Positions 8,654 through 49,574 of a stretch of DNA of 53,438 nt are shown here, in pieces. The position numbers were made by a program, and so were the translations under genes. This DNA is from Gemmatimonadales bacterium (GTDB lineage: Bacteria > Gemmatimonadota > Gemmatimonadetes > Gemmatimonadales > GWC2-71-9). The notes below the pieces were generated by a model that was not told the DNA's origin, ran no database searches, and saw only the letters and a program-made list of their open reading frames with translations. Within the stretch, counting starts at the first letter, position 1. Each line of letters opens with the position of its first letter. Location of the stretch: NCBI GenBank assembly GCA_035712665.1, contig DASTAN010000098.1, positions 1 through 53,438 on the forward strand, written 5' to 3'.

Positions 8654-11226
8654 GCACGACGCCGCTCCTCGCCCAGTACCAGGAGATCAAGTCGCGCCAC
8701 CCTGGCGCGATTCTCTTCTTCCGGATGGGCGACTTCTACGAGATGTTCTACGACGACGCGCAGGTCGCGTCGCGGGTGCTGAACATCACCCTCACCGCGC
8801 GCGGCGACGGCACGCCGCTCGCCGGCGTCCCGGTGAAGGCCGCCGCGGGGTACCTGCGCCAGTTCATCGCCGCCGGCCATCGCGTCGCGATCTGCGAGCA
8901 GATCGAGGACCCGAAGCTCGCCAAGGGCATCGTCAAGCGCGCCGTCGTCGAGACCGTGACCCCGGGCGCGTTCCTCGACGACGACTACGTCCCCGGGTCG
9001 CGCAACAACTGGCTGGTGGCCGTGCTCCCGCTTGCGGAGGGAGGTGCCGGCATCGCGGCCCTCGACCTCTCGACCGGCGAGTTCGCGCTCGAGCGCGCGG
9101 CGCCCGACGGCGTCGCCGAGGCGCTCGGTCGCCTGGCGCCCGCCGAAGTCGTGCACCCCAAGGGTGACGACGCGCTGCCGCTCGACAGCGAGGTGCTGCG
9201 CACGCCGCGCGAGCGCTGGGAGTTCGACGCCGAACTCGCGCGCGAGGAGCTCGCGCGTCGCCTCGGCCTCGCGTCGCTCGATGGCCTGGGCCTCGACCCC
9301 GCGGATGCGCCCGCCATCGGCGCCGCGGGGGCCCTGCTTCGCTATGCTCTCGAGCTGCAGCCCGCCGGCATCCCGCAGCTGCGCCGTCCGGTGCTGCGGC
9401 GCGCCGACGACCTCTGCTGGCTCGACGAGATGACGCGGCGCAACCTCGAGCTGGTGGAGCCGCTTCGCGCCGGCGCAAAGGGCGTGACCCTGGTCGAGAC
9501 GCTCGATCGCACGATGACGCCGATGGGGGCCCGCCTGCTCCGCCAGTGGGTCGTGTCGCCGCTGCGGGCCCTCGCGCGCATCACCGCGCGCCACGCCGCC
9601 GTCGGCACGCTCGCCACCGAGGGGCGCCTCCGCACGCGACTCCGCGAGTCGCTCGATGGCGTCCGCGACCTCGAGCGGCTCGCCGCGCGCGCGGCGGCCG
9701 GTCGCGCCACGCCGCGGGAGCTCGGGGCGCTGCGCGATTCGTTCGTGCGACTCCCGACGCTCGCGACGATCCTCGGCGAGCTCGCCGGCAGCGACGCGGA
9801 GCTGCTTGCCCACGCCGCGCGCACCTTCGACCCGCTCGCCGATCTCGCCGACCTGCTGCAGCGCGGCCTCAGCGAGCGGCCGCCGATCACGCTCGCGGAT
9901 GGCGGCGTCATCGCCCCGGGCTTCGACGCCGAGATCGACGAGCTCCGTGACCTGCGCGACAACGGCCGCAACGCCCTCGCCGCGATCCAGCAGCGCGAGC
10001 GCGACCGCACCGGGATCCCGTCGCTCAAGGTCGGCTTCAACAAGGTCTTCGGCTACTACATCGAGATCACCCACGCCAATCGCGAGGCGGTGCCGGCCGA
10101 CTACGAGCGGCGCCAGACCCTCGCCAACGCCGAGCGCTACGTCACGCCCGAGCTCAAGGAGTACGAGGCGAAGGTCCTCGGCGCGGAGGAGCGGATCCTG
10201 GCCCGCGAGGGTGAGCTCTTCGGCGAGCTCCGCGCGGCCGTCGGCACCGCGATCGCCCGAGTGCAGGGCACCGCGGACCTCGTGGCACGCCTCGATGTCC
10301 TCGCGTCACTCGCGGAGGTCGCCGTCACCGAACGCTGGGTGCGCCCCGAGCTGCACGAGGGGATGGAGCTGGTGCTCACGGGCTCGCGCCATCCGGTGAT
10401 CGAGCGGATGATGCCGCGCGAGCGCTTCGTGCCGAACGACGTCCGCTTCGACGAGCGCGAGCGGGTGCTCCTCGTCACCGGCCCGAACATGGCCGGCAAG
10501 AGCACCATCCTGCGCCAGATCGGGCTCTGCGTGCTCCTGGCGCAGCTCGGCAGCTTCGTCCCGGCCGAGCGCGCGCGCATCGGCATCGTCGACCGGCTCT
10601 TCACCCGCGTCGGCGCGAGCGACAACCTCGCGCGCGGGCAGTCGACGTTCATGGTCGAGATGAGCGAGACCAGCGCGATCCTCCACAACGCCACGGCACG
10701 CTCGCTGGTGCTGCTCGACGAGATCGGTCGCGGCACCAGCACCTACGACGGCGTGGCGATCGCGTGGGCGGTCACCGAGCACCTGCACGACCGCATCGGC
10801 TGCCGCACGATGTTCGCGACCCACTACCACGAGCTGATGCAGCTCCCCGAGAAGCTCGCGCACGCGCGGAACTGCAACGTCGCGGTGAAGGAGACGGCGC
10901 AGGGGATCGTCTTCCTGCATCGGCTCGAGCATGGCGGCACCGACCGGAGCTACGGGATCCACGTGGCCGAGCTCGCGGGACTTCCCGCCGCCGTGGTCGG
11001 GCGCGCGAAGGACGTCCTCGGGACGCTCGAGACCGGCCACCGGATGGTGCCGGGCGCACCGCCGGTGGGGCAGGACCCCGCGCAGCCGTCCCTCTTCGAC
11101 CTCGCTCCGGCCCCGGTGCCGCCGCCGGTCGATCCGATTCTCGAGCGGCTCCGCGAGCTCGACCTGAATCGGATGACGCCGCTCGAGGCGCTGCAGGAGC
11201 TGGCGAAGCTGAAGAACGAGACCTGA
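8650..11226 (+). CDS. mutS: DNA mismatch repair protein MutS
   Basis: TPLLAQYQEIKSRHPGAILFFRMGDFYEMFYDDA N-terminus, Walker A GPNMAGKST, and STFMVEMSETS. GTG 8650 overlaps the upstream TGA. The track ORF from 8236 is over-extended. Confidence 0.95.
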   Translation: MSTTPLLAQYQEIKSRHPGAILFFRMGDFYEMFYDDAQVASRVLNITLTARGDGTPLAGVPVKAAAGYLRQFIAAGHRVAICEQIEDPKLAKGIVKRAVVETVTPGAFLDDDYVPGSRNNWLVAVLPLAEGGAGIAALDLSTGEFALERAAPDGVAEALGRLAPAEVVHPKGDDALPLDSEVLRTPRERWEFDAELAREELARRLGLASLDGLGLDPADAPAIGAAGALLRYALELQPAGIPQLRRPVLRRADDLCWLDEMTRRNLELVEPLRAGAKGVTLVETLDRTMTPMGARLLRQWVVSPLRALARITARHAAVGTLATEGRLRTRLRESLDGVRDLERLAARAAAGRATPRELGALRDSFVRLPTLATILGELAGSDAELLAHAARTFDPLADLADLLQRGLSERPPITLADGGVIAPGFDAEIDELRDLRDNGRNALAAIQQRERDRTGIPSLKVGFNKVFGYYIEITHANREAVPADYERRQTLANAERYVTPELKEYEAKVLGAEERILAREGELFGELRAAVGTAIARVQGTADLVARLDVLASLAEVAVTERWVRPELHEGMELVLTGSRHPVIERMMPRERFVPNDVRFDERERVLLVTGPNMAGKSTILRQIGLCVLLAQLGSFVPAERARIGIVDRLFTRVGASDNLARGQSTFMVEMSETSAILHNATARSLVLLDEIGRGTSTYDGVAIAWAVTEHLHDRIGCRTMFATHYHELMQLPEKLAHARNCNVAVKETAQGIVFLHRLEHGGTDRSYGIHVAELAGLPAAVVGRAKDVLGTLETGHRMVPGAPPVGQDPAQPSLFDLAPAPVPPPVDPILERLRELDLNRMTPLEALQELAKLKNET

Positions 11227-11288
11227 GATCGGCGATCGGAGATCGGAGGACGCAGCCTCGGATCTCCGACCTCTGATCGCCAATCTCC
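11225..11288. repeat. GATCGGA-type palindromic element, copy E1
   Basis: GAGATCGGCGATCGGAGATCGGAGG-ACGCAGC-CTCGGATCTCCGACCTCTGATCGCCAATCTCC. It begins inside the mutS stop codon. Confidence 0.85.
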
Positions 11289-11305
11289 GGGGTTACTTTC
11301 CCGAA

Positions 11306-11671
11306 ATGCGCCCGCTTTCCCTGATCCTCCTCCTGGCCGCCTGCGGTGCCGAGCCCGCCCCGCCGGCCGAGCTGACCCCCGCGGTGCCGATCGGCGAACC
11401 GCAGATCCCCTATCCGCCTGACCTGTTCGCCGAGCGGGTCGAGGGCGAGGTGCTCCTCTACGTCGTGGTGGACACGGCGGGGATGGCGATCCGCGACTCG
11501 ACCCGGATCGCCACCTCGAGCGGCCGGGCCGCGTTCGACGCCGCCGCGCTCCAGGCCGCCGCGTCCCTCCGCTTCACCCCGGCCCGGATCGGCGACTCGC
11601 TGGTCGTGGCGCCACTGCAGGTGCCGATCAGGTTTGTGCTGCCGGATAGCACGACGACGCCGGTGAACTGA
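11306..11671 (+). CDS. TonB C-terminal-domain-like lipoprotein
   Basis: Lipobox LLLAAC followed by PYPPDLFAERVEGEVLLYVVVDTAG...AAFDAAALQAAASLRFTPA, which is TonB_C-like. Confidence 0.6.
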   Translation: MRPLSLILLLAACGAEPAPPAELTPAVPIGEPQIPYPPDLFAERVEGEVLLYVVVDTAGMAIRDSTRIATSSGRAAFDAAALQAAASLRFTPARIGDSLVVAPLQVPIRFVLPDSTTTPVN

Positions 11672-48064: not shown

Positions 48065-49500
48065 GCAACGACACCGAACTCGAGACACTCGTCAATCGCG
48101 AGTACCAGCACGGCTGGGTCACGGACATCGAGATGGACACCCTTCCCCCCGGGCTGACCGAGGAAACGGTGCGCTTCATCTCGGCCACGAAGAAGGAGCC
48201 GGAGTGGCTCCTCGACTGGCGCCTGAAGGCGTTCCGTCGCTGGCAGGAGATGGTCGAGCCGACGTGGCCGAACGTGCACTACCCGCCGATCGACTACCAG
48301 GCGATTGCCTACTACTCGGCGCCGAAGACCCAGAAGCCGCTCGGCTCGCTCGACGAGGTCGACCCGAAGCTGCTCGAGACCTACGAGAAGCTCGGCATCC
48401 CGCTCAGCGAGCAGAAGCTGCTGGCGGGCGTCGCGGTCGACGCGATCTTCGACTCGGTCTCGGTCGGCACGACGTTCAAGGAGACGCTCCGCAAGGAGGG
48501 CGTCATCTTCTGCTCGTTCGGCGAGGCGGTGCAGGAGCATCCCGAGCTGGTGCAGAAGTACCTCGGCTCGGTCGTGCCGGCGTCGGACAACTACTTCGCC
48601 GCGCTCAACTCGGCTGTCTTCTCCGACGGGTCGTTCGTGTACATCCCGAAGGGCGTGCGCTGCCCGATGGAGCTGTCGACCTACTTCCGCATCAACGCCG
48701 CGAACACCGGGCAGTTCGAGCGGACGCTGATCGTGGCCGAGGAAGGGGCGTACGTCTCGTACCTCGAGGGGTGCACCGCGCCGAAGCGTGACGAGAACCA
48801 GCTCCACGCCGCCGTGGTCGAGCTGGTGGCGCTCGATGACGCGACGATCAAGTACAGCACGGTGCAGAACTGGTACGCCGGCGACGAGCACGGCGTCGGC
48901 GGGATCTACAACTTCGTCACCAAGCGCGGCAAGGCCGGCGCACGGGCGAAGATCTCGTGGACCCAGGTCGAGACCGGCTCGGCGATCACCTGGAAGTACC
49001 CGTCGGTGATCCTGCAGGGCGACGACTCGATCGGCGAGTTCTACTCGGTCGCGGTGGTGAACGGGATGCAGCAGGCCGACACCGGCACGAAGATGATCCA
49101 CATCGGCCGCAACACGAAGAGCACGATCGTGAGCAAGGGGATCAGCGCCGGGAAGGGGCAGAACTCCTACCGCGGGCAGGTGAAGATCCTCCCGAAGGCG
49201 CACGGTGCGCGCAACTACACGCAGTGCGACTCGATGCTGATCGGGAACGCCTGCGGCGCGCACACCTTCCCGTACATCGACGTGCAGAACAGCACGTCCG
49301 ACGTCGAGCACGAGGCGAGCACGTCGAAGATCGGCGAGGACCAGATCTTCTACTGCAAGCAGCGCGGGCTCAACACCGAGCACGCCATCAGCGTGATCGT
49401 CAACGGCTTCTGCAAGGAAGTCTTCCGCGAGCTCCCGATGGAGTTCGCCGTCGAAGCGCAGAAGCTGCTGGGGATCAGCCTCGAAGGCAGCGTCGGCTAA
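48061..49500 (+). CDS. sufB: Fe-S cluster assembly scaffold protein SufB
   Basis: ...[10 protein letters not shown]..., ...[21 protein letters not shown]..., ...[21 protein letters not shown]... 479 aa. Confidence 0.95.
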
Positions 49501-49504
49501 CACC

Positions 49505-49574
49505 GAGAGGGGAGATCGGAGACCGGAGATCGGAGGGCGCGATCTCGGATCTCCGATCCCCGATCTCCGATCTC
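49505..49574. repeat. GATCGGA-type palindromic element, copy E9 (inside the suf operon)
   Basis: GAGAGGGGAGATCGGAGACCGGAGATCGGAGGG-CGC-GATCTCGGATCTCCGATCCCCGATCTCCGATCTC. It fills the sufB-sufC spacer. Confidence 0.9.

Follow-up and report, generated by a model that had tools for sequence, protein, structure and literature searches.

Heptamer-repeat cassettes at gene ends of a Gemmatimonadales genome: architecture, folding potential and replacement between strains

Introduction

Tandem repeats with a 7-nt unit have been reported in cyanobacteria (STRR repeats), were surveyed across genomes in 2007 and were examined in Xanthomonas in 2015. Among long simple repeats, heptanucleotides are described as the most abundant kind in the majority of the genomes surveyed, and polymerase slippage was proposed to explain them (Mrazek et al. 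2007, via PMC4679880 and PMC4692102). In Xanthomonas, about 185 arrays of GGGAATC are known, with four units preferred, 70-75 convergent pairs and positions near or overlapping stop codons; 83% of the sites are common to two species, the length of the arrays is variable and there is evidence of transcription (PMC4692102). Sets of heptamers are also known from Beggiatoaceae (PMC4679880). For Geobacter, elements with four tandem repeats were reported among the heptamer sets (PMC2700814). Here we describe elements of this kind, built from GGAGATC and many other heptamers, in a contig of 53,438 nt from a Gemmatimonadales bacterium (assembly GCA_035712665.1, contig DASTAN010000098.1, positions 1 to 53,438); this whole stretch is called the window below.

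An earlier note on this DNA, made from the sequence alone, had pointed to ten GATC-rich palindromes in the window. It compared their ends to the terminal inverted repeats (TIRs) of a MITE (miniature inverted-repeat transposable element) or of a repetitive extragenic palindromic (REP) element, and suggested that their GATC tetramers could matter for methylation. REP elements are defined, in the part of PMC3733652 drawn on here, by a GTAG or CGTC tetranucleotide conserved at the 5′ end of each REP. Our analysis places the ten copies instead in a genome-wide class of heptamer-repeat cassettes, which have a fixed order of G-rich and C-rich arms, lie mostly after stop codons and are replaced by one another between near-identical strains.

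Results

Ten GGAGATC-type arrays in the window

GGAGATC-type arrays were found at all ten places named in the earlier note: seven are full palindromes, each about 70 bp long, and the other three are half copies. When the window (70% G+C) was scanned with a degenerate pattern of two neighbouring G-N-G-A-Y-C-N units, exactly these ten clusters and no others came out. An inverted-repeat search showed that the arms of the seven full palindromes are 31-34 nt long, 75-87% complementary and separated by 5-8 nt. In all ten copies the arm consists of four heptamers followed by GAGG, for example one GAGAGGG unit, three GAGATCG units and the closing GAGG, and the copies diverge from one another by 15-25%. 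Since the same copies are held, with 0-1 differences, by independent assemblies (L120, L132, L147 and contigs of metagenome runs X1, X6 and X14), they are not assembly artefacts. The gene map gave the same contexts as those reported before, with four copies in convergent gaps, four in co-directional gaps, one in a divergent gap and one within a coding sequence.

The termini had been described as conserved, and this proved somewhat overstated. The sequence GAGAGGGGAGATC occurs 8 times in the window with no more than one mismatch, vs. 0.19 expected, and none of 100 shuffled sequences reached 8 occurrences. Five of the ends are exact and three carry one mismatch; the rest, namely those at 11218, 27149 and 47199 and most of the right-hand ends, differ at 2-4 positions. 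What had been taken for a terminus is the variant first heptamer of the array (GAGAGGG before GAGATCG). We also observed that, among the seven full copies, the left arms are more alike (mean alignment score of 22.1) than the right arms (16.6), and that the canonical GAGAGGG end lies mostly on the left, plus-strand side, an asymmetry that is unexpected for palindromes.

A genome-wide class of heptamer cassettes

The ten copies are the GGAGATC flavour of a class of heptamer-repeat cassettes that is found throughout this genome. Other intergenic gaps of the window hold arrays of GGGTAAG, GGGGTGA, GGGACAC/GGACACG, GGTGAAC, CTCACGA, GAAGGGT, GGGCCTT and TCCGCCT, usually arranged as palindromes. Period 7 dominates the tandem repeats detected in the window by Tandem Repeats Finder (TRF). 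When two syntenic relatives, L115 (polA product 90% identical) and L116 (79%), were included, 99 kb of sequence contained 60 period-7 arrays and at most 25 arrays of any other period; in a run scan, 12 runs had period 7 and none had periods 8-12. At least 32 distinct heptamer units are present in about 115 kb of Gemmatimonadales DNA (the window, L115, L116 and two further loci).

Comparison of the three syntenic regions showed that the orthologous gaps all carry a heptamer palindrome, the unit of which differs from genome to genome (Table 1). Between dnaN and the patatin-like gene there are seven GGAGATC clusters in the window (eight with the copy at the right edge), three in L115 and none in L116, and from these numbers the GGAGATC family has bloomed in the lineage of the window. 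The linker of the polA product, between its 5′-3′ exonuclease and 3′-5′ exonuclease domains (approximately amino acids, aa, 293-333), has been entered in frame by a composite of several families. In the closest polA homologue (P0002, 90% identical) this linker differs in its heptamers, the linkers of L115 and L116 are likewise heptamer-built (GGCGAAC), and the linker is hypervariable across all homologues.

The class extends well beyond this order. Perfect GGAGATC arrays were found in more than 114 stretches of species-representative genomes from many phyla, usually beside other heptamer arrays and with the same polarity, and a pattern scan placed them in Verrucomicrobia, Planctomycetes, Chloroflexi, Acidobacteria and others. 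Perfect GGAGATC arrays, each of about 4-5 units, are also present on nine viral contigs of IMG/VR (L135-L143, 57-69% G+C); in L139 and L141, at least, the array is followed by a C-rich array of another family, and the architecture is thus present on putative phage DNA. Perfect arrays of three GATCGGA units may resemble an Illumina adapter (AGATCGGAAGAGC), and standard pipelines might trim or filter out the cassettes that contain them. No Rfam family matches any of the cassettes. Mimicry of the anti-Shine-Dalgarno sequence (complement of the 16S rRNA 3′ end) was considered and dropped as unconvincing: 31% of the units match at 6 or more of 7 positions vs. 16% of shuffled units, the mean match is 5.03 vs. 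4.83, and GGTGATC is an exact substring.

Size, polarity and position of the modules

Arrays most often hold four units (27 arrays), followed by three (20), five (9) and six or more (2). A module is a tandem array of about four 7-nt units, 28 nt in all, with a short run of G at its end, and two such modules face each other across a centre of 3-10 nt. In every adjacent pair of the region, 13 of 13, the G-rich arm precedes the C-rich arm (p = 2e-4), and the same order holds for 30 of 35 pairs at loci from other phyla (pooled p = 1e-8). As a palindrome reads the same on both strands, this polarity is intrinsic and not a matter of the strand chosen.

The distribution of arrays among gaps is clearly uneven. 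They occupy 14 of 16 convergent and 13 of 20 co-directional gaps, vs. 3 of 13 divergent ones (Fisher p = 0.002), and the three occupied divergent gaps are one orthologous gap. The GGAGATC copies lie between -18 and +8 nt from the adjacent stop codons. Arms of different families can be combined within one cassette, as seen in the cassette starting at 12251, in the composite 47199-47306 and in the polA linker. Some arrays look as if they had been seeded by the local flank. The GTGAACG units at 34081-34109 extend the final bases (stop codon included) of the GWxTD-domain gene, and a CTCACGA array in L144 and L145 (about 80-108 of L144) extends the flank CCACGAC that is shared with the window beside the gene for a 57-aa product (43261-43275).

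Replacement of cassettes between near-identical strains

Sequence nearly identical to that of the window is present in many metagenomes from soil, sludge, sediment and mine tailings. We compared five GGAGATC sites, in the mutS/TonB_C, polA/MMPL, beta-lactamase-fold/iron-sulphur (FeS) assembly, 57-aa/hydrolase and sufB/sufC gaps; as neither the polA product nor the SufC protein of the window is on record, the alleles of polA/MMPL and sufB/sufC were inferred from aligned metagenome contigs. All five are polymorphic between near-identical strains. The earlier note had proposed a search for empty sites, and none was seen at these five; the other allele is another heptamer cassette of similar or greater length. 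Because the alternative is always another cassette, the change is one of replacement and not of insertion.

In the mutS/TonB_C gap, the GGAGATC palindrome gives way in strains L148-L152 to a cassette with units of GGGGTGA, of GTGTCCC and of TTCAC and with a 22-nt motif. Strains with this allele are diverged by about 0.4% elsewhere, and the C-terminus of their MutS differs. Their GTGTCCC array has 3, 4 or 7 units depending on the strain, and that of the cassette at 12251 has 3 or 9 (9 in L148), which shows slippage. For the beta-lactamase-fold/FeS gap, 41389-41488 is exchanged for 121 other letters in a contig of run X2, and both forms are present in run X6. The other allele (L119, L121, L122 and L124, contigs that encode an identical FeS protein) is a GGGACAC/GACAAGG-type palindrome, and the allele of the window is found again in L120 and L132. 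L115 has the family of the alternative allele at this gap, and the GGAGATC allele therefore looks derived. At the divergent gap, L147 has the copy of the window, and in L144 and L145 arrays of TTCACCG and of CTCACGA come after five GGGGTGA units. Between sufB and sufC, contigs of X12 and X17 have 102 other letters in place of 49497-49587 (91 nt), and X14 has the palindrome; between polA and the MMPL gene, X2 and X10 differ from about 37035 to about 37124, and X1 and X6 have the palindrome.

Two further kinds of change were observed. The copy in the AraC gap is inverted in L115 relative to the window, aligning with a score of 39 to the reverse complement and 27 in the forward direction. L116 and L118, which encode the same polA protein, differ by four point differences in 10.7 kb, all of them inside one palindrome. 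L118 also has, relative to L116, a C/G-rich insertion of 33 nt (at about 13051 of L116) in the C-terminal end of the MMPL gene, which may be a real length variant or an assembly error in low-complexity sequence.

A 22-nt motif, CATCCYGAGCGNAGCGARGGAT, lies centrally in heptamer cassettes of relatives (L115 2969-2990 and 10922-10943; L116 13010-13031; L148 521-542) and also in the L115 polA linker. The window lacks this motif, which looks like a second, nested family of small repeats.

Folding potential and canonical terminators

The matched palindromes are predicted to fold, from either strand, into hairpins of about 30 bp with energies of -38 to -50 kcal/mol and z scores of -3.1 to -6.5. A terminator scan found a hairpin followed by a T run at none of the ten copies, and within 24-44 kb of the window such a canonical signal stands at one gene end only (25291).

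Coordinates of the cassettes and genomic context

Table 1. Heptamer arrays and cassettes of the window and the units found at the corresponding gaps of L115 and L116 (fold energies in kcal/mol)
Feature	Position	Strand	Remarks	L115	L116
GGGTAAG/GGGGTGA-type palindrome with TCCGCCT x4 array	6352-6455		fold -55.6, z -7.7		
GGAGATC full palindrome, mutS/TonB_C co-directional gap	11218-11287		arms 11218-11249 and 11256-11287, 75% complementary; RNA fold -38.3, z -3.8; mutS stop codon (11224-11226) inside first unit, mutS end overlapped by 9 nt		
GGACACG-type palindrome, TonB_C gene/CGNR zinc-finger gene	11677-11753		one unit-level change between strains		
Nested composite, outer arms GGTGAAC/GTTCACC, inner GGGGTGA vs. 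GTGTCCC mismatched	12251-12347				
GAAGGGT x6 and CTCACGA x4 arrays, one at each end of a convergent gap	19729-19898				
GGAGATC half copy, C-rich strand, 4 units ending CCTCTC	25385-25420		11 nt upstream of M28 peptidase start codon	orthologous half copy kept	
GGAGATC full palindrome, M28 peptidase/transglycosylase convergent gap	27149-27217		fold -45.5, z -5.4; 7 and 8 nt from its two stop codons	GGCGAAC	GGGGTGA
GGAGATC full palindrome, AraC-type regulator/phosphoribosyltransferase convergent gap	31121-31190		fold -45.1, z -4.8		
GTGAACG array from stop codon of GWxTD-domain gene, then GGGACAC-type palindrome (gap upstream of polA)	34081-34172			GGAGATC palindrome ending GATCTCCCCTCTC	GGTGAAA
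GGAGATC half copy (G-rich arm) inside polA	35077-35107	+	first module of in-frame composite 35072-35192		
Other polA linker modules: GGGACAC x4 (35112-35138), CCCCTCA x4 (35170-35192)	35112-35192	+	from TRF and sequence		
GGAGATC full palindrome, polA/MMPL transporter convergent gap	37048-37117		fold -48.3, z -5.7; right arm encodes last 5 codons and stop codon of MMPL gene, overlap 18 nt	GGTGAAC + GGGGTAA/GGGACAA	GGTCATA
GGAGATC full palindrome, beta-lactamase-fold/FeS-assembly convergent gap	41414-41482		fold -48.0 (+), -49.3 (-)	GGACAAG	GGATGTT
GGAGATC full palindrome, divergent gap, 57-aa gene/hydrolase gene	43181-43260		fold -50.1	GGCGAAC	GGGGTGA
GGAGATC half copy (G-rich arm), 2 nt past stop codon of patatin-like gene	47199-47232	+	first module of four-family composite 47199-47306: GGAGATC + GGGACAC, then CCCCTCA + TTCACCG		
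GGAGATC full palindrome between sufB and sufC, in suf gene cluster	49505-49574		fold -45.8, z -3.1		
CGTGAGT/CTCACGA palindrome	53260-53327				

Homologues of polA place the source of the window in Gemmatimonadales. The sole Rfam match in the window is a bacterial class A RNase P RNA at 29763-30133 on the minus strand (285 bits); as it overlaps the 5′ part of the provisional open reading frame (ORF) 28954-29850, this frame must be shorter. No tRNA or tmRNA was found in the window. The region 19891-25220 has the gene order of a replication origin, in which minus-strand yidC, rnpA and rpmH are followed by plus-strand dnaA and dnaN. Of the seven TGTGGAT motifs of the window, which resemble DnaA boxes, three cluster at 23786-23895, where dnaA ends and in the gap between it and dnaN; this gap is one of the few without heptamer arrays.

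A non-coding block of about 130 nt past the hydrolase gene is shared by the window (44450-44585), L115 (20265-20400), L116 (20519-20660) and strains L125-L129. It ends in a bidirectional terminator made of an A-tract, a hairpin and a T-tract (44532-44581), and has no Rfam match. This conserved block may be an undescribed small RNA or leader.

Discussion

Proposed hairpins at gene ends on unstable DNA

The best explanation of the matched cassettes, and one that we hold with evenly balanced confidence, is that they act as hairpins at 3′ ends and that the simple-sequence DNA carrying them is unstable, turning over through slippage, through inversion and through the replacement of cassettes. Where two modules of the same family face each other, the transcript from either strand would fold into a hairpin of about 30 bp beginning no more than a few bases from the stop codon, and the matched cassettes would act in the RNA as 3′-end hairpins without a U-tract. 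Such hairpins could define or protect the ends of transcripts and insulate neighbouring genes, much as REP elements, bacterial interspersed mosaic elements (BIMEs) and the so-called I-shaped terminators do in other bacteria. At the DNA level, three kinds of change affect these unstable repeats: units are gained or lost in the 7-nt register, a cassette is inverted, by our reading through recombination between its two arms, and a cassette of another family replaces the whole, often with the last codons of the flanking gene re-written. The sequences themselves show the anatomy, dispersal, polarity, position bias and hairpin potential of the cassettes, as well as slippage, inversion and allelic replacement; the role in the RNA and the agent of replacement are inferences.

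Several observations weigh against this explanation. The polA composite (35077-35192) and the composite 47199-47306 fold no better than shuffled sequences (z of +0.43 and -0.87, respectively), and because such unmatched composites keep the G-then-C polarity without folding, pairing cannot explain everything. The arms of one copy are as complementary to each other as to the arms of other copies (alignment score of 18.1 vs. 18.3), so that the comparison gives no sign of a compensatory maintenance of stems. In two gaps (25291 and 44540), heptamer arrays have a canonical U-tract terminator as their immediate neighbour. Full termination would do harm at the copy that separates sufB from sufC, another copy lies in the divergent gap and a third is translated within polA; for these same copies the remark of the earlier note, that a terminator role does not fit them all, was fair. 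The RNA evidence consists of assembled contigs that carry no direction. Finally, the 15-25 nt beside the replaced cassettes are strongly diverged relative to the background, which may mean that old alleles are shuffled by recombination, or that the replacement is error-prone.

Alternative explanations

The cassettes could instead be functionless by-products of a polar DNA metabolism in the 7-nt register, in which slippage or repair synthesis is combined with recombination and the products persist where they do little harm. We regard this, the main rival, as possible but somewhat unlikely. Their places, after stop codons and in a floppy protein linker, are those that would be tolerated; the polA linker has been invaded in frame in all three genomes; the ends of mutS, the MMPL gene and the beta-lactamase-fold gene are re-written; and unit families differ freely between relatives. 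The flank-seeded arrays (GTGAACG at a stop codon, CCACGAC by the 57-aa gene), the G-then-C rule in composites that do not fold and arms that pair within a copy no better than across copies point the same way, and a slippage origin of the heptamer excess has been proposed (Mrazek et al. 2007, via parts of PMC4679880 and PMC4692102). Yet the same gaps stay occupied across about 20% of protein divergence though the sequence in them is replaced, arrays lie extremely near to the stop codons on both sides of convergent gaps, the module keeps to a tight length of about four units and the polarity is universal. These four features require either selection or a very specific generating mechanism, and plain slippage predicts neither polarity nor palindromes. 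It is doubtful, in turn, that the cassettes are non-autonomous mobile elements (MITE or REPIN-like) moved in trans by a transposase or REP-associated tyrosine transposase (RAYT) encoded elsewhere. What stands of the earlier proposal is that the repeats are dispersed and form a family with sharp ends: a large number of metagenome contigs align to 41414-41483 only, with unrelated flanks and a spike of depth, and the boundaries at 41414 and 41483 are sharp. The earlier note had taken a lack of further copies, or identical occupancy across relatives, as an argument against mobility; further copies exist beyond the window in the same population (L130 and L134), and occupancy varies between relatives as well as between the near-identical strains. 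The bloom of the family in one lineage and the GGAGATC copy with the GATCTCCCCTCTC end at a non-orthologous gap of L115 would also suit a mobile element. The features of the copies are at odds, however, with a MITE or REP that has terminal inverted repeats. The flanks of the ten copies have no common direct repeat, as had already been noted for target-site duplications, and at the sites compared other cassettes take the place of an empty site and flanking codons are altered. The termini read GAGAGGG, GAGATGG or GAGACCT and carry no GTAG/CGTC tag, single arms are tandem heptamers and not hairpins, and the arms behave as independent modules that mix with other families. Moreover, the copies differ by 15-25% though their sites turn over between close strains. 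A Pfam scan of the 30 ORFs of the window confirmed the reported absence of a transposase or RAYT-like gene and found no reverse transcriptase gene, and the precomputed Pfam labels of L115 and L116 (19 genes each) include no transposase, RAYT or reverse transcriptase. A metagenome scan for the terminus with its units gave 5 loci only, too few for a study of flanks or target sites.

Two readings that start from the composition of the unit are both very improbable. In one, the GATC content would be the point of the elements, as a sink or signal for a methyltransferase of the Dam type, for a reader like SeqA/MutH or for a restriction system. The islands of GATC reported earlier are real: the ten copies, 597 nt in total, contain 54 of the 577 GATC tetramers of the window, most of them spaced 7 nt apart (about 8-fold local density), and the window spans the dnaA-dnaN origin region. 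Their role as a meaningful signal found no support: GATC-free units (GGCGAAC, GGGGTGA, GGGACAC, GGATGTT and GGTCATA) have the same architecture at orthologous gaps of relatives and strains, GATC occurs in the window at 0.92 of its Markov expectation and is neither avoided nor favoured, the copies are spread over 38 kb and not clustered at the origin, and the Pfam scan of the window detected no methyltransferase gene, nor do the gene labels of L115 and L116 name one. The GATC tetramers are most likely incidental to the sequence of one unit. In the same counts for the whole window, CTAG (observed/expected of 0.32) and CATG (0.41) are strongly under-represented, which GATC is not. The other reading, that the elements act as G-quadruplex formers, follows a proposal made for the GGGAATC repeats of Xanthomonas in the part of PMC4692102 drawn on here. 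G-rich arms of about four units are the minimum for a quadruplex, and the sister families GGGGTGA and GGGACAC have runs of three or four G. The GGAGATC unit, however, has GG runs only and falls short of a G3 tract, the families GGTCATA, GGATGTT, CTCACGA and GGCGAAC have no G tracts, and the competing duplex or hairpin of 30 bp is very stable in the matched cassettes.

A possible writing mechanism and what the locus offers

The cassettes may also be written by a dedicated process of DNA synthesis in the 7-nt register, which we consider a long shot. Such a process would begin with a break at the fragile palindrome, followed by resection that could nibble into the gene ends. At each 3′ end, synthesis would then add about four G-rich heptamers outward from the flank, with the template copied or stuttered and sometimes seeded by the flank, and the two ends would be joined. 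If true, this would explain the G-then-C polarity even in composites that do not pair, the mixing of families between arms and the modules of about 28 nt. It would likewise account for the noisy units, for arms that are no more alike within a copy than across copies, for the re-written last codons and for sites that stay occupied while their content changes, and it would be the long-sought cause of the excess of heptamer repeats across bacterial phyla. The G-first polarity of non-pairing composites, the mixing of families and the replacement among near-identical strains keep this mechanism alive, at a low probability. The kind of element is itself already known, as pairs of heptameric repeats at gene ends. 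Those same three observations, on the polarity of non-pairing composites, on the two arms of different families and on the replacement between close strains, may be new, with no literature search having been aimed at them.

According to the parts of reviews drawn on here, no class of long simple repeat is commoner than heptamers in many bacteria, and neither their function nor their origin has found an accepted explanation since the repeats were first noted. The locus adds a fourth setting, that of widespread uncultured Gemmatimonadales of soil and sludge. Public metagenomes hold a natural allelic series of unit number, inversion and replacement of whole cassettes at defined sites, which makes it testable, from existing or readily obtained data, why the period is 7, why there are four units and why the G-rich arm comes first. 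On the practical side, the cassettes break short-read assemblies, change the C-termini of neighbouring proteins, create hypervariable protein linkers and can be mistaken for MITEs or for GATC clusters related to methylation.

Comparison with known systems

Hairpins that REP elements form in transcripts of E. coli can stabilise the upstream mRNA. The cassettes are similar to REP, BIME and REPIN elements in being short, extragenic, palindromic repeats that lie mostly after 3′ ends, are rare in divergent gaps and occur as singlets, inverted doublets and mosaics of several types. They differ from REP and REPIN elements in that the GTAG/CGTC tag is lacking, the arm consists of tandem heptamers and not of a hairpin, no RAYT is seen in the window, L115 or L116, and sites change by replacement and not by insertion. 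With MITEs they share a small size, dispersal, inverted ends and the lack of coding capacity; unlike MITEs, they have no target-site duplication, the whole element is made of repeat units without distinct TIRs, and no matching autonomous element was seen in these sequences. The elements thus fail the REP/RAYT and MITE tests that were applied. Rickettsia palindromic elements (RPEs) offer a parallel for a palindromic repeat tolerated in frame in a coding gene, here in the polA linker; RPEs are 100-150 bp long with a conserved sequence, whereas the elements of the window are heptamer arrays and the coding copy is a non-pairing composite.

Intrinsic terminators without a U-tract, called I-shaped, have been described for Mycobacterium among the high-GC bacteria. 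The cassettes resemble them in having a strong GC-rich hairpin directly past the stop codon and no T run, in a genome of 70% G+C where canonical terminators are scarce. Their stems differ in being unusually long (about 30 bp), repetitive and dispersed as families. In function the cassettes may resemble REP/BIME elements and U-tract-less terminators.

The closest relatives are found among the heptamer repeats. As in the repeats surveyed in 2007 and the STRR heptamers of cyanobacteria, period-7 repeats are the commonest long repeats, are mostly intergenic and occur across phyla. The former were explained as direct repeats arising by polymerase slippage, which in the part of that work cited here leaves palindromic pairing, polarity and the turnover of cassettes unexplained. 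The GGGAATC/GGGNATC repeats of Xanthomonas and Nostoc (Rehm et al. 2015, PMC4692102) have, as far as the part of the paper drawn on here describes them, the same 7-nt unit length, a similar sequence, a preference for four units and frequent convergent G-first pairs that can form stem-loops; they also lie next to or overlap stop codons and keep the same sites in related genomes with variable length and sequence. Here, by comparison, the phylum is different, many unit families coexist in one genome and most of them are incapable of forming three-tetrad quadruplexes. At this locus we see whole cassettes replaced between near-identical strains, composites whose arms do not match and a gene invaded in frame; none of these is among the descriptions in that same part of the paper. 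Apart from G3 tracts, the elements of the window have all the architectural features of paired heptameric simple sequence repeats, and since the Xanthomonas GGGAATC repeats show the same traits, we place them in this known class of heptamer pairs at gene ends.

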